Origin: a virus
Length of the DNA: 44,683 nucleotides
Reading direction: 5' to 3' (one strand)
UHGV virus genome: UHGV-0176991
Shown here: positions 1 through 44,683 of the stretch, piece after piece
Numbering within the stretch: the first letter of the stretch is position 1
How the letters are laid out: the number at the start of each line of letters is the position of its first letter
The notes under the pieces: generated by a model
The model's input: only the letters and a program-made list of their open reading frames with translations
Told to the model about the DNA's origin: nothing
Databases searched by the model: none
Translations under genes and position numbers: made by a program

Positions 1-2876
1 ACAATATTTTCGCAGGCTTTGCCGCCGTGTGTGTACAGGGTAGTCCATTGGCGGGTTAACTGGTTTTCACCTTGGTACTTGATTCGCACATTCGTGTTCA
101 CCCGTCCATCTTCGTCTGTTTCCTTTGTCACGCTAACGCCGATTCCAGGGTACGAGAGGATACGGCCTGATGGCAACTCCATACACAACCACCAGCCAGG
201 AACCTTCCTGCCCGACGAATCAAATTCAACGGTACGCCATATGCGGATAGCCCTTTCACCATTCCGGCGCAAGTGTGCCCCCGCCCAAAATTCACGGCCA
301 GGATTACGAACAGCGGCTAAAATTCCGTCTTTAAGGTCGCGCCAGAACGCTACTGTTTCCGGGTGTGACTCGCGCCACATACGCTTGATTGCGTCACATG
401 TGCGCCACACTTTCTTGTCCAGAATATACGACGGTCGGTCGTCCTTTTCGCCCGGATGCGGCGGTCGCTTTGCTTCCTGGATACGCGCCCACTCATAACC
501 GCGTGCGGTAGCGGCCCATATGTGGTCGGGGAATGTACCGTCCATTGTTTTTGCCATCTCGATAAGGTCAAGACCTAAGTTTTTAGCAAACGTAACGAAC
601 GCCCCGACGCCCCCCTCATAGCCGAGACCGAGCTCGCAGTTATGCGCCACAAGAAAGCCAGAGTCGGAAGCTATAAGAAAACGGTTGCCGTCTTCCACAT
701 CAATCAGGTCGTACACTGGCTCGCAGTAGGTTAATTTCCCGTTCAAGCTCAGCAATGCGGGCAACGGCTGCATCATACTTTCGTTGAAGCTCAGGTATTC
801 GCCGTCTGTTACGGCAGTTTTCAGAACGGCTGACAAACCGAATGTTTCCAGGTTCGTAGTTACCGTCTGTGTCGATTCTGTCCATTTCGAGGTTCGGGTC
901 ATCCCAGCCTTCCAGAGTTTGAACATATCTAAGAAAAGACCTTTTATCAGTCCTCCACTGGTCAAATACCGTGATGCCTCTTGCCCCATAGTTTTTATAA
1001 CCCTTATCCCTGGGGCTTGTTGTTCGCGTGATTGCCGCGGACAGCCGGTTGAGTAATCGCGTTCTGTGCACATCATCCGGCATTGCGTCTTCGTAGCAGA
1101 AATATTGTTTACGATATTTTTTTGTTGCTTCAAGGGCGCAACGGTTGCATTGAGTGGTTTTACCTGCTCTGACATTGTCATAATAGACCCGCCCCGGCAT
1201 CTCTCCGCAATCACATTGGACGAGTAGTTGTCTTTGGCCTTGTCGTTTTGGTAACTCGCGCAGGATAACCAGGCGTCCATACCTATCTCCAGGGCTCGGT
1301 CCATCATATATTTGTTTGAAACGAGTTGCTTTGCCTGCTTCCAGGAATGCGTCAAGATTTTGTGGTCTTCGGTCATTAGCACCCCGTCCACATTTATTAC
1401 CGGTTTCCACCCCATAAGGTGCGCGCCTTTTGTATTCACCCATTTTTCACCGCTCCATACTTTATCTGTCGATGTGACCGCCATAATATCCTTAAATCCG
1501 CCATCGGTCAAAACTTGGGTATGGCGGTGAAGGCAGGCTTTACCAATCTGGCGTAAGTCTTTGCGTTCTTTCTTAATGTAATCCGGCTCCATGCCGAACA
1601 TCTTACCTGCGGTTACGCAGTAAATATCCAACCCAGCACGGAACGTATCGAGCGCGGTTTCTTCGCCAGCCAGCCACGCAAGCCCCCGGCCTTCAACGTT
1701 AGAGTAATCGGCAATAACAAACTTATGTCCGGCTTCCGGTATTATGCAGCTACGGACCGTCGATGCTGTCAGCTTGGCTACATCAAAACGGCGATGCGCC
1801 CGGCCCTTAAGTAACGCTGAAATGCCTTTATCGAGTTCATCATCGTGATAGTACCCTCGCGCCAGGTTCTGCGGCTGGAAGCCTTTACCTGCCCATCGCA
1901 GAGTACGTTTTGCCCCGCCGTACTGCAAGCAACCGCGGCGGCGGTCGTCAGAAGAGCGACCTAATAGCAGCGGGTTATATTTCGTGGATGCTGTGGACGC
2001 CGCCCCGAGTCGCATTTCGATAATAGTGCGCGCGTCGTCTGGCAAATCATCGTCCGCCAGCAGGTCGTTAAGCGTCGACTTCTGTGCGTTGTGAATACGG
2101 TGCGCAGGCGCAAGTTCACGCAGAATAGGCAGGAAATCTTTACCAGTAAGCGACCCGCCGTATTTGCGTTGGGCTTCTTCCTGTAACTGCGCTTTGTGCT
2201 TCTCTACGGCTTCAATCGCGGCTTCTGCCAGCGCGACGTCAACCTTAAACCCTCGGTCGTTAATTAACTGATCCAGTTCCAGTACCCGGTCCTCGAACTC
2301 GGAGTTACCCCACCGCGGCAGCTTATGGAAGACTTCACGCATCGCAGTGATGTCGCTCACGGCGTACTTGATGAACAGCGCCCACTCGTCCGGGTGCGTT
2401 TCGGCGGTGTAGCGGCGGATTTTGTAGTTCTTTGGCGTAGGTTTAGAAAAACGTTGAATCAGCGCCTTGCCGCGTTTATCTTTCGCATTGTCCGCGGACA
2501 CGCCCAGCACTTCGCACAACGCATCAAGTGAACCAGGCAGCGCGTGACGAAACGCCCAAATCATCGTATCAATGGTGTTGCTTACTGGAATATCAAAGCC
2601 CCAGCAGTGCTTCATGATGAGCCTGTCGAACATTGAACCGTTGTGCCATACCATCTTGATGCGGCTGTTAGGCTTCACCAGGCGGCGCAAGGCGCGGTGC
2701 AAATCTCCCGGCATGTCGCTGCCATCAGTGCAATCCCATACCTGCACAGGCTCGTCGTCAAAAGCATAGGTACAGATAAGCACTTCGGTAGTTGGATGTT
2801 CCGCGTAGGCATAGGAACCGACTTTCTTTAAATCGGCTTCGGAGAATGTTTCAAAGTCTAAGAACAGGTAACTCAT
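1..2876 (-). CDS. DNA polymerase, family A (Pol I/T7-like), N-terminal and central part; intein-containing; gene continues across the window junction into 44461..44683
   Basis: Hand translation of minus strand from ATG at 2876: MSYLFLDFETFSE (3-5 exonuclease motif), motif A IADYSNVEGRG, motif B split RQIGKA / CELGLGYEGG by an intein; frame open to position 1. Not in ORF track (no stop in window). Confidence 0.85.
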   Translation of the reverse strand, partial: MSYLFLDFETFSEADLKKVGSYAYAEHPTTEVLICTYAFDDEPVQVWDCTDGSDMPGDLHRALRRLVKPNSRIKMVWHNGSMFDRLIMKHCWGFDIPVSNTIDTMIWAFRHALPGSLDALCEVLGVSADNAKDKRGKALIQRFSKPTPKNYKIRRYTAETHPDEWALFIKYAVSDITAMREVFHKLPRWGNSEFEDRVLELDQLINDRGFKVDVALAEAAIEAVEKHKAQLQEEAQRKYGGSLTGKDFLPILRELAPAHRIHNAQKSTLNDLLADDDLPDDARTIIEMRLGAASTASTKYNPLLLGRSSDDRRRGCLQYGGAKRTLRWAGKGFQPQNLARGYYHDDELDKGISALLKGRAHRRFDVAKLTASTVRSCIIPEAGHKFVIADYSNVEGRGLAWLAGEETALDTFRAGLDIYCVTAGKMFGMEPDYIKKERKDLRQIGKACLHRHTQVLTDGGFKDIMAVTSTDKVWSGEKWVNTKGAHLMGWKPVINVDGVLMTEDHKILTHSWKQAKQLVSNKYMMDRALEIGMDAWLSCASYQNDKAKDNYSSNVIAERCRGGSIMTMSEQVKPLNATVAPLKQQKNIVNNISATKTQCRMMCTERDYSTGCPRQSREQQAPGIRVIKTMGQEASRYLTSGGLIKGLFLDMFKLWKAGMTRTSKWTESTQTVTTNLETFGLSAVLKTAVTDGEYLSFNESMMQPLPALLSLNGKLTYCEPVYDLIDVEDGNRFLIASDSGFLVAHNCELGLGYEGGVGAFVTFAKNLGLDLIEMAKTMDGTFPDHIWAATARGYEWARIQEAKRPPHPGEKDDRPSYILDKKVWRTCDAIKRMWRESHPETVAFWRDLKDGILAAVRNPGREFWAGAHLRRNGERAIRIWRTVEFDSSGRKVPGWWLCMELPSGRILSYPGIGVSVTKETDEDGRVNTNVRIKYQGENQLTRQWTTLYTHGGKACENI
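639..1535 (-). mobile_element. intein (Hint-type splicing element) inserted in DNA polymerase motif B
   Basis: In pol frame: CLHRHTQVLTDGGFKDIMAV (block A), VLMTEDHKILT (block B), VYDLIDVEDGNRFLIASDSGFLVAHN then extein Cys (blocks F/G); 897 nt = 299 codons, in frame with both exteins. Confidence 0.8.
700..1443 (-). CDS. HNH homing endonuclease (zinc-knuckle plus YKNYGxRGI and RIDxDGNYEPGN motifs), encoded in a different frame nested inside the intein
   Basis: ORF track protein: CDCGEMPGR...QCNRCA, GYKNYGARGITVFDQW, EMDRIDTDGNYEPGNIRF; GGAG 9 nt upstream of ATG (minus strand); frame differs from intein/pol frame. Confidence 0.75.
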   Translation of the reverse strand: MGEYKRRAPYGVETGNKCGRGANDRRPQNLDAFLEAGKATRFKQIYDGPSPGDRYGRLVILRELPKRQGQRQLLVQCDCGEMPGRVYYDNVRAGKTTQCNRCALEATKKYRKQYFCYEDAMPDDVHRTRLLNRLSAAITRTTSPRDKGYKNYGARGITVFDQWRTDKRSFLRYVQTLEGWDDPNLEMDRIDTDGNYEPGNIRFVSRSENCRNRRRIPELQRKYDAAVARIAELEREINLLRASVRPD

Positions 2877-2893
2877 TATTTTCGACCCTTAGT

Positions 2894-2917
2894 AAAAAGG
2901 CCCAATAAAGGGCCTTA
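2894..2917 (-). terminator. hairpin plus T-run between SSB gene and polymerase gene (possible attenuator)
   Basis: Minus-strand reading: ggccc-tttatt-gggcc followed by ttttt. Confidence 0.4.
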
Positions 2918-2935
2918 GTTAAATTGATTCAGATA

Positions 2936-3562
2936 TTAGCGGCGGCGACGTTCGCGGCGTGGTGCTTCATCTTCTTCGTCGTCTTCCAGGTCGTCGACGC
3001 TTGCGGCGACTTTAGAACCCCCGAACGCTTTACCTTCACCGACGTATTTAATCGCCAGCAGGTTAACACCGAGAACTTTGTATTTCTGGCTGAACCAGAT
3101 TTCAACGCTTACGTTAGCGACGCAGCCGCTGTAAACCTGTTCACCTTCAATCTGTTCGCCGTCTACGTTGAAGTCTTGCTCTACCTGAGTTTCGCCTTTT
3201 TTAGAGGTTACAATCAGCGGCTGTTTCTGCGCCTTCGCTTTGAAGTAGAAGCCTTCCGGGAAGTCTTCAAACGGATTGTCGCGCTCAGCAATGTCTTTAA
3301 TAGCGCATTTATCCATGTGCTTACCTTCGCCGTAGTTGGACTTCATCCATTTCTCGGCGGCGGCTGAACCTAACGCTTCTTCAACTACAGCGTAAACCGT
3401 ATCGTAGAGCGCGTCGATTTGCGCATGGTCAGACGGCAGGATGATAGTCGCGCTGTACTGGCCCTTAGTGATTGAGCCATCATCGTTTTCACGGTCTTTT
3501 TCGCGTTCGAATACGTTAACCCATGCAGTGTTTACTTTACGCAGATTCAGTTTAATACCCAT
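2936..3562 (-). CDS. single-stranded DNA-binding protein, T7 gp2.5-like, with acidic DDLEDDEEDE segment near C-terminus
   Basis: 208 aa; FYFKAKA...LIVTSKKGE and YSGCVANVSVEIWF...GEGKAFGG architecture resembling gp2.5; acidic tail. Confidence 0.5.
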   Translation of the reverse strand: MGIKLNLRKVNTAWVNVFEREKDRENDDGSITKGQYSATIILPSDHAQIDALYDTVYAVVEEALGSAAAEKWMKSNYGEGKHMDKCAIKDIAERDNPFEDFPEGFYFKAKAQKQPLIVTSKKGETQVEQDFNVDGEQIEGEQVYSGCVANVSVEIWFSQKYKVLGVNLLAIKYVGEGKAFGGSKVAASVDDLEDDEEDEAPRRERRRR

Positions 3563-3616
3563 CTTAATTTCTCGCTTTTCAGTTTACTCCGGGAAGCTGC
3601 CCGGCCAGTGATTAGA

Positions 3617-3645
3617 ACTATAATAGCTAACTATTCAGGTGTCAA
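3617..3645 (-). promoter_or_regulatory. sigma70-type promoter (minus strand) TTGACA-17-TATAGT
   Basis: Reverse complement reads TTGACAcctgaatagttagctatTATAGT; upstream of SSB gene. Confidence 0.5.
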
Positions 3646-3878
3646 CCCTTCCAGCCAGTTATTTTCTCAACTATAGTTAAATATACGTTAGGCCACTCCA
3701 AATTCTGCACCCATTTAAGTTCCTTCGTCGAGTCCAGTTCCTCAGGGTCTACTATTTCGTACTTAATCGCAACGTAGACCACGAGTGGGAGTAAGATAAT
3801 TAAAAGCGGTGTTACCATAGCCCAATAAACAACAAACGCCATAAATCCACCAAGCACCCTGAACATTTTACGAATCAT
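3642..3878 (-). CDS. small membrane protein
   Basis: Hydrophobic segments (FMAFVVYWAMVTPLLIILLPLVVYVAI); start chosen at internal ATG 3878 overlapping upstream stop (ATGA) with GAGGAGGA SD. Confidence 0.55.
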   Translation of the reverse strand: MIRKMFRVLGGFMAFVVYWAMVTPLLIILLPLVVYVAIKYEIVDPEELDSTKELKWVQNLEWPNVYLTIVEKITGWKG

Positions 3879-5116
3879 TCCAAATCCTCCTCTGTTACCT
3901 GATTCCACTCAGGCCGTTTGTCGTCTGCCGTTGCGACGCATGGCGCGCCTGGCTTACGTGTAATGAAGTCTTTCAGTTCTTCTTCCGGTATGACTTTAAC
4001 AGCTTCGGTCGGCGTCATGAGTACTACTTTTTGCAGCATAGTACCGTACTTCTCGAATACAGCATCGGTATCTTTCCATGCACGATTACCAGGGCGACCT
4101 TCAACCAGCTTGTAACCCGGCACTTTCTTACCGAAATGCAATGCGGCAGCCATAGCTTTTTCAACCTTGTCGATGTGCTGGCGCAACAACGGTAACTTCT
4201 CATACTCAGCTACGAGTTGCTCCGGCGTAAGTTCCAGCGCAAAGTCGTCCTCCAGTTCTTCCGCGAGTACAGAGTTAACGGTCTTTGTACGCGCGGCGCA
4301 CTGTTCGGAGAACCGGCACCACTGACAACCATCATCCGACGGCCTGAAGTCCGACGCTTTCAGGTTCTTCTTGCCACGGAAATACGCGTCTAGTGCTAAT
4401 AGTGCACGTTTATGTGCAAACTTAGCGAACAGTTCCAGGCCTTCAACAGAGATGTCCCACTCTGACGCGCCTCCAGCGTACGGCTGGAAGATGACCAGAC
4501 GAACAACTGTTATGTTATAACGTCTCTTTAGCCGGCGATAAACACCGAGAGCGTAAAGCATAAGCTGCTTGTTTTCTTTTGCTTCGACACGATGTCGTCC
4601 TGTTTTCAGGTCGCCGATAATGAGCATGTGCTCGTCTGTGTTAGCCAGTTCCTGCACAGCAACAAGGTCAGCGGTTCCGAACGTCTCAACGCCTTCATAT
4701 CCAGGGTGCAATACCTCAGTGAGATTGATGCGCATTTCCAGCTTGGCATAAGTCGCTACGTCGATAATCGCTTTGCAGTAGTCCGTGTACTTGCGTACCT
4801 GCTCAATCATGTCCGCTGTAATCGGTACTGCACCTTTCATCGGGCTGATAAGCGCCTTAATCTGGCCTTTGCCCTCATCCAGCACGTAAGCGCCAACTTC
4901 ACGCTCTAATGGCAACGCAGTGCCTTTGATGTACTGGTTAAGGTGCATCTCGGCTATGGTGTGCATAGCTGTGCCCAATACAGCAGCTTTACCCGACGTG
5001 TTAGGAATATCTTTCTCACAGGCCAGCGAAGCTGCACAACTTAGCCATTTCTTAGCGCCTGACGGCGACAGCAAGGCGTGTACATCGTTATTGCCGCCGC
5101 GTTCTTTTAAAATCAT
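3875..5116 (-). CDS. PD-(D/E)XK exonuclease, Cas4/RecB-like (DUF2800-type)
   Basis: 413 aa; GTADLV...IGDLKTG...QLMLYALG nuclease motifs and C-terminal CQWCRFSEQC cysteine cluster. Confidence 0.7.
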   Translation of the reverse strand: MILKERGGNNDVHALLSPSGAKKWLSCAASLACEKDIPNTSGKAAVLGTAMHTIAEMHLNQYIKGTALPLEREVGAYVLDEGKGQIKALISPMKGAVPITADMIEQVRKYTDYCKAIIDVATYAKLEMRINLTEVLHPGYEGVETFGTADLVAVQELANTDEHMLIIGDLKTGRHRVEAKENKQLMLYALGVYRRLKRRYNITVVRLVIFQPYAGGASEWDISVEGLELFAKFAHKRALLALDAYFRGKKNLKASDFRPSDDGCQWCRFSEQCAARTKTVNSVLAEELEDDFALELTPEQLVAEYEKLPLLRQHIDKVEKAMAAALHFGKKVPGYKLVEGRPGNRAWKDTDAVFEKYGTMLQKVVLMTPTEAVKVIPEEELKDFITRKPGAPCVATADDKRPEWNQVTEEDLE

Positions 5117-41158: not shown

Positions 41159-41340
41159 TTTTTACCTTCGCTTTTCTTGAAACTGCGCTTTATATCCGAC
41201 AGCGTGTAGCACCGTGATTTTTCGTATTTACCGTCCGAGCTTACCAAAACAAAGCTGTTGCCGTCTTTTGATATGTACTCGATGGTGAAAATATTGAATG
41301 AATGTACGCTGTATATTTCATCGCCAACATTAAGTTTCAT
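41155..41340 (-). CDS. hypothetical small basic protein
   Basis: 61 aa ORF overlapping helicase stop. Confidence 0.4.
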   Translation of the reverse strand: MKLNVGDEIYSVHSFNIFTIEYISKDGNSFVLVSSDGKYEKSRCYTLSDIKRSFKKSEGKK

Positions 41341-42761
41341 CTCTTACCCCGTCTCTTCATGTAATTAAGCAACTCTTCCTGAACCGATTTCTTCTCGTCT
41401 GTACGCGCGGCAACAACCTCGTCCAGCGTGTCCTTAGCAACAATGTGGTAGAGGAACACCGGTCGCTCGTGACCCGCCTGTTTCTGACGTACCGGGCCGA
41501 TGCGCTCGACAACCTGCAAATAGTGCTCGAGGTTCCAGCCTTGCGAAATAAACGCCAGATGATGCCCGCCGTCCTGTAAATTCAAACCATGCCCGGCTGA
41601 CGCAGGGTGTACGCATAATATTTCGATTTCACCTCGGTTCCACGCTTCCATCTGCTTATTACCTTTAGCGCCTTTTGCAAACGCCTGTGCCTGTGGGAAC
41701 CGCTTAAGGATGCGCTCCAGCTCGTGCTTAAACTGATAGGCGACCAGTAACGGCGCACCCTGTAACTCCTCGACAATTGACTCAAGCGCGTCCAGTTTAG
41801 TGTCATGCACTTTCTCCCAGTCTTTGGTTGCTTCTCCGTCTGGCCCTGATACATACACAGCACCGGATGCAATCTGCAAGCACTTCGACGTCTTCGCCGC
41901 CGCGTTAGCCGCTTCAACTTCTCCGCTCTCCAGTTCCGCGAATAACTTCTCCTCCATGTCTATGTACGCCTGACGTGCTTTCTTCGGCAGGTCGATCTCA
42001 ACCGGTACAATAATCGGCGCTTCACAACCAAACCACTCGGCTGGGTCGATGGTCAGACTGATGTCTTTCATCTTCTGGTGAATTTCATTATCGGCACCAG
42101 GGCGCGCGTGATATTCACGGGCCATCGCCGACTTACCTTTCTGTACCGAGTTAAACCAGCGGTCGGTGAACGCAGTGTACGATGAACCGAGGCGCTCGCC
42201 AGCGTCGATAAACCAGTTTTGACCCCACAAGTCTTTGAGGCCGTTTGGCGATGGTGTACCTGTCAGGTTGATGAAACGCTTAACCTTTCCGAACGCCACT
42301 TTGCTTAGCGCCTTAGCCCGTTTGCTTCCGCCAGAACGGCTGCGGAACGATTTCAACTTCGTGCTTTCATCGGCAACGATAACCGTAAAAGGCCAGTCGT
42401 CTTTGCCGTAGTAGTCAATCAGCCACTCGATAACTTCGTAGTTAGTGCACACCACATTAGCATCTGACTCCAGCGCTGCGATGCGGCGTTTCTCTGAACC
42501 AGTAGCGTCGACAACACGCAGACAAGGGAAGCTCCATTTCTCCTGTTCTGCGGGCCACGTACCCGATGCAACTCGTAACGGGGCGAGGATTAACACGCGG
42601 TCCTCTTCAGTAAGCTGTCCGTTGCGAAACAATCTGTTGAGCACCCACATAGTAGAGGAGGTTTTACCCCCTCCCATGCCGCACCAGATATTACAGCGCG
42701 GGTGTTTCAGCATGAACGAAGTCATGAGCTTCTGATATTCGCGCCTTTGAAACTTACTCAT
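41337..42761 (-). CDS. SNF2-family (SF2) helicase
   Basis: Walker A CGMGGGKT, DEST box VADESTKL, TGTPSPNG, SAGHGLNLQDGGH...GWNLEH. Confidence 0.75.
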   Translation of the reverse strand: MSKFQRREYQKLMTSFMLKHPRCNIWCGMGGGKTSSTMWVLNRLFRNGQLTEEDRVLILAPLRVASGTWPAEQEKWSFPCLRVVDATGSEKRRIAALESDANVVCTNYEVIEWLIDYYGKDDWPFTVIVADESTKLKSFRSRSGGSKRAKALSKVAFGKVKRFINLTGTPSPNGLKDLWGQNWFIDAGERLGSSYTAFTDRWFNSVQKGKSAMAREYHARPGADNEIHQKMKDISLTIDPAEWFGCEAPIIVPVEIDLPKKARQAYIDMEEKLFAELESGEVEAANAAAKTSKCLQIASGAVYVSGPDGEATKDWEKVHDTKLDALESIVEELQGAPLLVAYQFKHELERILKRFPQAQAFAKGAKGNKQMEAWNRGEIEILCVHPASAGHGLNLQDGGHHLAFISQGWNLEHYLQVVERIGPVRQKQAGHERPVFLYHIVAKDTLDEVVAARTDEKKSVQEELLNYMKRRGKR

Positions 42762-44339: not shown

Positions 44340-44471
44340 TCATTCCAGCACCCACAGATAAATTGCTACTAACATACACAATACGGCGACCATCATGCCG
44401 TATTGGCCCTCGTGACAGTAGACACCGGCAGCAAATCCAGCCATTACCGCGATAATCAGTTTACTTGGCAT
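44340..44471 (-). CDS. hypothetical small hydrophobic protein (43 aa)
   Basis: Hand translation MPSKLIIAVMAGFAAGVYCHEG...; low confidence. Confidence 0.25.
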   Translation of the reverse strand: MPSKLIIAVMAGFAAGVYCHEGQYGMMVAVLCMLVAIYLWVLE

Positions 44472-44683
44472 AACGTTTTAACTCCTGTCCTTCCGCCACA
44501 AGAGGGAACCCCTCCGCCCATTCCGGTAATTCGCACATCAACCGCTCAAGCTCAGCCACATTGTATTCTGGCGCATCTGGGGTTTCACATACCAGTTCAT
44601 CGTGCACAGAAAGCACGATGTGATACCCGCCACGCTCAACGTTAATCATCGCATACGCAAGTAAATCACGGCACAGCGCCTGA
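44461..44683 (-). CDS. DNA polymerase family A, C-terminal segment (motif C); continuation of the gene at 1..2876
   Basis: YHIVLSVHDELV motif C; frame open to window end; joins codon-exactly with the ORF leaving position 1 (junction codon GTT). Confidence 0.85.
   Translation of the reverse strand, partial: QALCRDLLAYAMINVERGGYHIVLSVHDELVCETPDAPEYNVAELERLMCELPEWAEGFPLVAEGQELKRYAK

Follow-up and report, generated by a model that had tools for sequence, protein, structure and literature searches.

Where does a mobile intein keep its homing nuclease when no such domain can be recognised in its own polypeptide? The question is raised by UHGV virus genome UHGV-0176991, a stretch of 44,683 nt that was analysed as a whole and is called the window below. 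It is a complete circularly permuted genome of a Guernseyvirinae phage (Kagunavirus/Jerseyvirus-like). Its family-A DNA polymerase gene contains a 299-codon intein, and a second open reading frame (ORF) of 247 codons lies within the intein, on the same strand and in another frame. We consider it probable that the element is a mobile class-1 intein in PolA motif B and that its homing nuclease is encoded by a gene of its own, which lies nested in the intein centre in the -1 frame. The features on which the argument depends are as follows; pLDDT stands for predicted local distance difference test, a score of the structure models.

639..1535, minus strand: class-1 intein, 299 codons, with Cys1 at 1535..1533 and His-Asn at 644..639
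636..638, minus strand: codon for Cys+1 of the C-extein, the nucleophile at the splice junction; intein-less alleles have this Cys as a native residue
1251..1535, minus strand: N-terminal splicing region, about residues 1-95, with blocks A and B (TEDH at 1373..1362); intein-frame conservation dominant
741..1250, minus strand: central ~170 codons, an unstructured stop-free linker in the polymerase frame; no genuine domain match and low pLDDT
639..740, minus strand: C-terminal splicing region with blocks F/G, VYDLIDVEDGNRFLIASDSGFLVAHN; intein-frame conservation resumes
700..1443, minus strand: nested ORF, 247 codons, ATG start and TGA stop, in the -1 frame of the intein; putative HNH-like homing endonuclease of the free-standing type
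1..2876, minus strand: family-A DNA polymerase precursor gene; the uninterrupted frame crosses the window start and resumes at the window end
44464..44683 (start approximate), minus strand: same polymerase gene, final ~73 codons and stop, frame ...GGKACENIVQALCRD...KRYAK and stop

The polymerase gene and its intein

The polymerase, the intein and the nested ORF are all encoded on the minus strand, and the polymerase frame is free of stops from the gene start at 2876 down through 1535..639. When the window end is joined to its start, this frame stays open as far as KRYAK and its stop codon, which means that the whole genome was cut inside the polymerase gene. The closest records are 93% identical to the window across the polymerase region. 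In relatives, the polymerase is annotated as a 1032-aa 'intein-containing DNA polymerase precursor'. The Pfam DNA_pol_A match ends at residue 447, which is the intein junction. The exteins join as RQIGKA/CELGLGYEGG, where the slash marks the insertion point, and this is motif B (O-helix) of a family-A polymerase. We take its positions to correspond one by one to those of E. coli Pol I motif B, R-R-S-A-K-A-I-N-F-G-L-I-Y-G.

The intein begins with CLHRHTQVLTDGG, has its block B motif TEDH at residues 55-58 and ends in FLVAHN, which is followed by Cys+1. All the class-1 residues (C1, T55, H58, H298, N299 and C+1) are present in the window intein, and the first five are invariant in seven sequences compared down to 28% identity. 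A profile of the splicing regions (mini-intein) was built from the first ~105 and last ~32 residues of nine divergent relatives. It matched solved inteins, namely NEQ068 (the Neq/Nanoarchaeum Pol split intein) with an E value of 2.6e-5 and PI-MtuI / the RecA mini-intein with ~1e-3. The intein models of Pfam and NCBIfam did not match the single window intein sequence. In the intein-less alleles of HSE2, dunkel and Jersey, RQIGKA/CELGLGY is contiguous with the Cys already in place, and intein-containing alleles are longer by exactly 897 nt. The intein-less target reads ...CAGATTGGTAAGGCC/TGCGAACTGGG... around the insertion point, and in phage Jersey or HSE2 it reads ...CGCCAGATTGGTAAGGCC/TGCGAACTGGGACTCGGC... 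From the location in the essential O-helix and the intact catalytic residues, we infer that the precursor undergoes protein splicing.

Related inteins (L016, L027-L030, L045-L113) occupy three different points within motif B. Their +1 Cys lies 2, 3 or 6 residues past the conserved Lys (GKx/CELGLGY, GKVA/CLALGY and GKVQELA/CGFGGG), and at each point this Cys is supplied by the extein itself.

Intein ends and centre are constrained in different frames

The polymerase and nested frames are both stop-free, and the third frame of the same strand contains 32 stops. We shuffled the synonymous codons of the nested ORF in such a way that the nested protein and its codon composition were preserved. The shuffled sequences had a mean of 5.6 stops in the polymerase frame, and none out of 3000 was stop-free. 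Free-standing homologues of the nested protein have 13-18 stops in the corresponding frame. Taken together, the stops in the third frame, the shuffles and the free-standing homologues exclude chance as the cause of the double open frame.

The same arrangement was found in related phages. Both frames are open in 15 of 15 undamaged close relatives that contain the full region, including SO-1 and EP23 (83% DNA identity). The analysis was extended to 62 distinct loci from IMG/VR, in which the nested protein is 43-70% identical, the GC content is 40-67% and the nested frame is open for at least 225 codons. Not one of the 62 has a stop in the host frame, against 262 stops in total expected from synonymous shuffles. 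The probability of zero stops at a single locus was below 0.006 in seven loci (3000 shuffles each) and reached up to 0.12 in a survey of all 62 with 300 shuffles.

Selection on the two frames was assessed by the ratio of nonsynonymous to synonymous substitution rates (dN/dS) between the window and SO-1, which differ at 153 positions. In the overlap, the ratio was 0.18 for the nested frame and 0.74 for the intein frame. Outside the overlap, it was 0.06 for the first 30 intein codons and 0.05 for the last 20. The third codon position of the nested frame accounts for 73 of the 131 differences in the overlap. In a comparison of six sequences, down to ~45% identity, the intein frame was better conserved over intein residues 1-70 and 271-299, and the nested frame over residues 100-250. 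The dominant frame thus switches near residues 70-100 and back near 265.

Structure prediction with AlphaFold2 divided the region in a similar way. The nested protein was modelled with a mean pLDDT of 86.8, and the values exceeded 90 for residues 50-247. Its first 45 residues are disordered, and these are the part that overlaps the N-terminal splicing domain. In the intein frame, residues 58-257 gave a pLDDT of ~27, and residues 1-57 and 265-299 formed beta strands with a pLDDT of 75-88; the values were 78-88 for residues 1-50 and 73-81 in the C-terminal splicing region. These data show that protein-level constraint in the intein frame is confined to the first ~95 and last ~35 codons, which correspond to the HINT splicing domain. 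In the ~170 codons that separate them, it is the nested frame that is constrained. The polymerase frame must cross the whole insert, and it is kept stop-free.

An earlier note, made from the letters of the window alone, had placed the insertion at 639-1535 and the second ORF at 700..1443. All these coordinates were correct, with the features on the minus strand. Its reading of the insertion as a 299-codon intein in polymerase motif B agrees with the invariant canonical residues, the profile match to solved inteins and the contiguous intein-less alleles. It had also stated that the in-frame centre shows no recognisable endonuclease domain, which is borne out by the low pLDDT and by the failure to find a genuine profile match. 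The claim that two open frames exceed chance and are both selected is upheld by the shuffles, by the 15 relatives and 62 loci, and by the split in dN/dS. The comparison with related phages had been suggested there as a check.

A patch of 100 nt at ~975..1075 (minus strand) is 77% identical to phage S528, against 95-99% in the rest of the intein. In the nested protein, the window reads ...AAITRTTSPRDKGYKNYG and S528 reads ...AAISRTTIPGNKSYKNYG. This suggests mosaic recombination within the nested gene.

Mobility, putative product and probable expression of the nested gene

The intein was found in 166 phage records at 83-99% DNA identity. The spliced junction was matched by 304 records, and intein-less alleles are among them. 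The layout is kept in ~160 genomes of Guernseyvirinae and Dhillonvirus, and HSE2, 536P11, dunkel, Jersey and K1G/K1H are close relatives without the intein. When compared with Jerseyviruses, the intein is 94-98% identical, the adjacent 200 nt are 88-90% identical and the N-extein is 78% identical. For Sodalis phage SO-1, which belongs to a different genus, the values are 83% for the intein, 72% for the adjacent 200 nt and 62-65% for the exteins. Such a peak of identity on the intein with decaying flanks is the classical signature of homing with co-conversion. As judged from these alignments, close relatives either have or lack the element at one precise site, and it is more conserved than its host gene.

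A search of a large protein collection returned 316 homologues of the nested protein at 43-58% identity. Nearly all of them had been called on contigs of ~1 kb or at contig ends, and gene callers seem to detect the nested ORF only where the polymerase is truncated. The first five homologue loci that were checked all have the ORF within a motif-B intein of PolA; their host frame has 0 stops and their third frame 13-24. A second subfamily (L018, L020, L021, L114-L191) has homologues that are 32-46% identical, encoded in related PolA motif-B inteins with the other frame offset (host = nested + 2). There, the host frame is stop-free in 58 of 66 distinct loci. One of its members, L020, has a strong AAGGAG Shine-Dalgarno (SD) sequence ahead of the ATG.

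Altered forms of the element were also found. A few loci have truncated nested frames. In L186, and also in L188 and L189, an internal deletion has left 97 nested codons, and the host frame encodes an intact mini-intein of ~140 residues; such a deletion would be an expected decay stage of a homing element. In L017, the same polymerase (582..2526 and 2462..4279) has a second intein at another site (RFGG/CLVDD...), divided over two ORFs that are not in the same frame. The halves of this intein are separated by a free-standing nuclease homologue (1756..2526), which is the 'fractured gene' layout. The motif-B intein of L017 has a nested frame with a premature stop at 3435.

The existing annotation of the element is uneven. 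Among 60 records listed, only those of SS3e and SO-1 have a separate feature for the nested ORF. In SS3e (NC_006940.2; L024 / L015), the intein is 899 nt long instead of 897 nt, and the polymerase is annotated in two pieces with an 'HNH endonuclease' coding sequence (CDS) between them. The excess of 2 nt is probably a sequencing error in an old record. In SO-1 (GQ502199.1; L025), the nested ORF is gp39 (2078..2836) inside polymerase gp38 (594..3782), and the element is called a 'type I self-splicing intron'; by its sequence, it is an intein and not an intron. In the Ent1 record, the intein is annotated as 'encoding splicing domains' only.

The nested protein was matched by HNH endonuclease families of PHROG, namely phrog_374 (E 1.7e-47), phrog_3377 and phrog_2081, and weakly by phrog_1035 'endonuclease VII' (E 1.4e-5). 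Its structure neighbours in BFVD (E 1e-14 to 1e-6) are phage proteins named HNH or homing endonuclease or AP2-domain protein, and some are named DNA-binding. The product name given by NCBI in SO-1 and SS3e is HNH endonuclease. Peptides such as IDTDGNYEPGNIR and SFLRYVQTLEGWDDPNLEMDR are unique to the nested frame. The model has a small beta-barrel and a long C-terminal helix, and it also contains a four-Cys zinc ribbon, a helical region and a beta-beta-alpha element. The zinc-ribbon-like element has weak similarity to the Cox5B zinc ribbon. In the HNH-like motif, N200, N209 and N212 are invariant in 84 sequences. Two elements of the protein were located in the window.

1138..1215, minus strand: zinc-ribbon-like element, nested residues 77-102; C77, C79, C99 and C102 are invariant in the 84-sequence alignment
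802..894, minus strand: beta-beta-alpha element, nested residues 184-214, EMDRID...GN.RF...EN..N; HNH-like core in which Arg replaces the first His

The start of the nested gene falls within the N-terminal splicing region, where the following candidate expression signals were found.

1441..1443, minus strand: nested ATG, made of the last base of the Lys31 codon and the TG of the Trp32 codon, within the intein motif W-x-G-x-x-W
1453..1456, minus strand: GGAG, SD-like, within the Trp27-Ser28 codons, 10-13 nt upstream of the ATG
1483..1511, minus strand: sigma-70-like TTGACC-17-TATTAT within codons of intein block A, 39 nt upstream of the ATG; a candidate for an internal promoter of the nested ORF
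1447..1458, minus strand: nested-frame mini-ORF of four codons, ATG GAG CGG TGA, whose end is separated from the main ATG by 3 nt

Of 63 distinct loci, 62 have a nested-frame ATG over a Trp codon of W-x-G-x-x-W or over the following Val-Cys codons. At the wobble position that precedes the second Trp, 47 of the 63 have A, for which the background frequency is 16%. The purine-rich W-D-G-E-E codons upstream of the ATG give an SD-like stretch throughout the family, and in one subgroup it reads GGAGGAG. The GGAG that the earlier note had assigned to the nested ORF stands at an offset of 10-13 nt. Of the 63 distinct loci, 30 have a promoter-like match at the same position, the background in the host genes being 0.013 matches per 98 nt. 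This match depends on rare synonymous choices: Leu9 is TTG in 32 of 47 loci (18% in the background), and Ile17 is ATA in 28 of 56 (15%) and ATC in 9 of 56 (61%). Loci without the promoter-like site tend to have the strongest SD. We infer that the ATG, the SD-like stretch and the promoter-like element are built from conserved intein-block codons, and the bias in synonymous codons supports all three. That an internal promoter serves the nested ORF is a possibility to which we give slightly less than an even chance. The mini-ORF could serve for reinitiation or coupling, or be neutral. In SO-1 and EP23 its stop is missing, and the nested ORF begins 5 codons earlier.

In many members of the family (L029, L045-L113), the nested ORF ends 47-50 nt past the block-F Tyr codon, near the intein end; in L029, it ends one base before. 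If the terminal His-Asn were encoded by CAT AAC, a TAA would arise in the nested frame.

The proposed mechanism is as follows. The translated intein ends would fold together across the floppy linker and self-splice, which would restore RQIGKA-CELGLGY. The nested gene would be translated independently from the ATG at 1443, with the start codon and the SD-like stretch provided by the W-x-G-x-x-W codons. For about half of the family, transcription of the nested gene from the promoter-like element in the V-L-T and A-I-V codons of block A is probable as well. The free nuclease would cut or nick intein-less polymerase alleles during co-infection, and recombinational repair would then copy the intein, the nested gene and some flanking sequence into the intein-less allele. 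A more far-reaching version can be proposed only tentatively, as we hold it to be somewhat less probable than its opposite. According to it, the element is an ancient and stable three-layer code, in which the N-terminal splicing-block codons double as an expression cassette for the nuclease. The cassette would have its -35 box in V-L-T, its -10 box in A-I-V, the SD in W-D-G-E-E, the ATG across Trp and, in many members, the stop within the terminal His-Asn. The nuclease would be transcribed and translated independently of the polymerase, and intein and nuclease would form one mobile unit across hundreds of phage lineages in two frame relations.

Several observations weigh against the reading of a mobile intein with a nested homing nuclease. 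The AlphaFold2 models were made from alignments of unequal depth, with 84 sequences for the nested protein and 7 for the intein frame; the confident intein termini in the shallow run serve as an internal control. The P values for codon bias, such as the binomial P of ~1e-24 for the wobble base before the second Trp, ignore shared ancestry. The promoter match in the window is no better than chance for the region (2 found, 2.1 expected), and half of the family has no promoter-like element. Pfam and NCBIfam gave no match of an HNH model to the nested protein. The position of the canonical catalytic His is D188-R189 (EMDRID), and R189 is invariant in the 84 sequences. With Arg in place of His, the protein could nick DNA, work with a different base or bind DNA only. 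The steps of splicing, nested-ORF translation, transcription from the internal promoter-like site and nuclease activity are all deduced.

Further searches gave a similar picture of the nested protein. When Pfam was run on the 84 relatives and free-standing homologues, no HNH domain was reported, and only a 'CapR homology domain' appeared, in 18 members. AP2 profiles did not match the nested protein itself. Searches of PDB sequences with the protein and its profile returned only zinc-ribbon noise, and a Foldseek search of the model against PDB gave nothing significant. The earlier note had called the protein a clear HNH endonuclease; the PHROG profiles and the viral structure neighbours speak for this, and Pfam and NCBIfam do not. 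Likewise, the profile searches that it had proposed for both translations succeeded for the PHROG HNH families and the intein splicing profile, and failed for AP2 and for the Pfam HNH and intein models. Since there was neither an HNH match in Pfam or NCBIfam nor a fold match in PDB, and Arg stands in place of His, we call the nested protein HNH-like. Its nuclease activity is proposed on the basis of the homing pattern.

The explanation that competes best with a homing nuclease is that the nested protein is made and selected but does not cleave DNA. It could bind DNA, have a regulatory role or assist another nuclease, and the intein could spread by ordinary recombination or with the aid of other homing endonucleases in these genomes. 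The invariant Arg, the missing Pfam match and the BFVD neighbours named DNA-binding or AP2 would fit such a role, and relatives have neighbouring free-standing HNH genes. On the other hand, the nested ORF is strictly linked to a mobile, sporadic intein in two subfamilies, and the peak of identity is centred on the element. The beta-beta-alpha element with its conserved Asp and invariant Asn has been retained, and the deletion and truncation variants resemble the classical decay of homing endonuclease genes. We therefore regard a non-cleaving protein as unlikely, and a nested homing nuclease is preferred.

A second alternative is that the nested frame has no start of its own and is reached by programmed -1 ribosomal frameshifting, which would yield a fusion of N-extein, N-intein and HNH protein. 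The nested frame is indeed -1 relative to the polymerase in the subfamily of the window, and an A-rich run, GAAAAAT, is found at the start of the window ORF. However, the window and most of its close relatives have a nested-frame stop 3 nt upstream of the ATG, and no slippery heptamer is conserved across the family. The start codon is kept in all but one of the 63 loci with a strong bias at the wobble position, and the second subfamily uses the other frame offset. Programmed frameshifting was rejected on these grounds, and we give it very little credence.

It is equally improbable, in our opinion, that the in-frame centre is itself functional, as a novel nuclease or a regulator of splicing, so that three functions would overlap. 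What speaks for it is that phrog_93, labelled 'endonuclease', matches the intein frame (639..1482), that dN/dS of the intein frame in the overlap is below 1 (0.46-0.75), and that motifs such as GMT.TSKWT recur in this frame. The phrog_93 profile, however, continues into the polymerase C-extein, which indicates that it was built from mis-called ORFs starting at an internal Met of the intein; it was not accepted as an in-frame nuclease. The segment opposite the recurring motifs is the most conserved one of the HNH protein, and the motifs are its shadow. The centre is modelled with very low confidence, and it has been lost from L186 with the mini-intein still intact. The phrog_93 label is misleading for annotation pipelines.

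The last alternative, that the second frame is an artefact of sequencing frameshifts in an in-frame HNH intein or a decaying relic with no present function, draws on SS3e, where two extra bases break the polymerase and expose the HNH ORF, and on the few truncated nested frames, but it is contradicted by the comparative data and has hardly any probability left: the frame relation recurs in ~160 independently sequenced genomes and in 62 plus 58 distinct metagenomic loci, the 2-nt excess occurs in SS3e alone, and the nested ORF has a dN/dS of 0.18, remains intact at 43% protein identity and gives a confident AlphaFold2 model.

Relation to known systems

Canonical in-frame HNH or LAGLIDADG inteins have a homing-endonuclease coding region between blocks B and F that interrupts the HINT domain. 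The window intein resembles them in this interruption and in its insertion at a conserved active-site motif of a replication protein. It differs in that the nuclease is outside the intein polypeptide and the in-frame centre is a disordered spacer. An example of a complete gene with its own start in another frame of the same strand is Rz1 of phage lambda, which lies inside Rz. Rz and Rz1 are both parts of one lysis function, whereas the partners described here are two selfish modules, a splicing element and a nuclease, in an essential gene. In this case, the outer frame appears to need only the absence of stops.

The closest system is that of inteins of actinobacteriophages with a homing endonuclease of the endonuclease VII-like type, encoded out of frame on the same strand ('frame 3'). 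This layout was termed previously unreported, continued horizontal transfer was described, and the invasion of an intein by a free-standing homing endonuclease gene was proposed as its origin (Gosselin et al. 2025, bioRxiv 10.1101/2025.01.02.630785). The suggestion of the earlier note that the arrangement had not been described is thus superseded by this report. In both cases, the nuclease ORF lies on the same strand in the endonuclease region of the intein but in another frame, and the in-frame centre has no recognisable structure. The two differ in several respects. The phages studied here are enterobacterial Guernseyvirinae and Dhillonvirus and many uncultured phages. The host gene is PolA, interrupted in motif B, while in the actinophages it is a DNA polymerase (listed as Pol III alpha), a minor capsid protein, a terminase large subunit or a thymidylate synthase. 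The nuclease, with a zinc ribbon and the motif DRID...N...N, appears to belong to a different family, and its sole link to endonuclease VII is the weak match to phrog_1035. Furthermore, the family described here is very large and uses both alternative frames. The overlap of its nested ORF with the N-terminal splicing domain spans ~70 codons, and this domain supplies the start codon and the SD-like and promoter-like elements.

The same group described the ShiLan-domain insertion in DNA methylases of mycobacteriophages, which has a hidden out-of-frame HNH gene (Arsenault et al. 2025, PMC11855218). This insertion is also stop-free in the host frame, has the HNH gene in another frame of the same strand and shows a distribution that fits active homing. 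Unlike the window element, with its canonical intein ends in an essential host gene, ShiLan has no splicing domains and is thought to be retained as a loop. No ribosome-binding site was found for the ShiLan gene, and leaderless initiation was proposed; in the case of the window family, the SD-like stretch and the ATG are conserved.

Fractured genes are a third relevant system, in which a free-standing homing endonuclease gene lies between the halves of a split intein (Dassa et al. 2009, PMC2677866). There, too, a separately translated nuclease of the free-standing type takes the place of the endonuclease domain, and short coding overlaps occur. The second intein of L017 has exactly this layout, with a homologue of the window nuclease. 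In contrast to fractured genes, the host gene is unbroken in the window and in all intact relatives, and one frame crosses the nuclease gene. Owing to this single continuous polymerase frame, splicing would take place in cis, and the whole of ~740 nt is dual-coding. Split inteins with free-standing nuclease genes are likely to be the evolutionary context of the element.

No literature on the nested gene in the polymerase inteins of Guernseyvirinae, Jersey-like phages, SETP3 or SO-1 was found, in a search that did not extend to key papers in subscription journals (SETP3, Ent1, SO-1), so that this absence is no proof. We conclude that the window intein and its very large family belong to a recently described architecture. 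The family differs from the earlier cases in host gene, phage group and, apparently, nuclease family, and it adds detail on the depth of conservation, the use of both frames and the putative expression signals within splicing codons.

These results have consequences for annotation. Gene callers seem to miss the nested ORF unless the polymerase is truncated, and the inteins are annotated as 'splicing domains' only. As a result, the probable driver of mobility has gone unnoticed in ~160 sequenced Salmonella and E. coli phages, including some that were isolated for typing or therapy. Out-of-frame nuclease genes in inteins are no rarity of actinophages; they are the rule for a large family of PolA inteins, in both frames. 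The split form in L017, the two nested forms and the mini-intein in L186 look like a natural series for the model in which splicing came first and the nuclease was captured later. As a long stretch of dual coding with one frame selected for nothing but freedom from stops, the element may also be useful for calibrating methods that detect overlapping genes.

Other parts of the window were compared with the element as well. A search of the window for a second copy of the nuclease or the intein did not find one, and the intein splicing regions, when used as a query against the window, gave no second copy. Ent1 (L026 4352..) and other relatives have a second intein, located in the helicase gene, with an in-frame LAGLIDADG endonuclease. 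The window ORF 41337..42761 (474 codons) has the length of the SS3e helicase CDS, far below that of Ent1, and is a putative helicase only.

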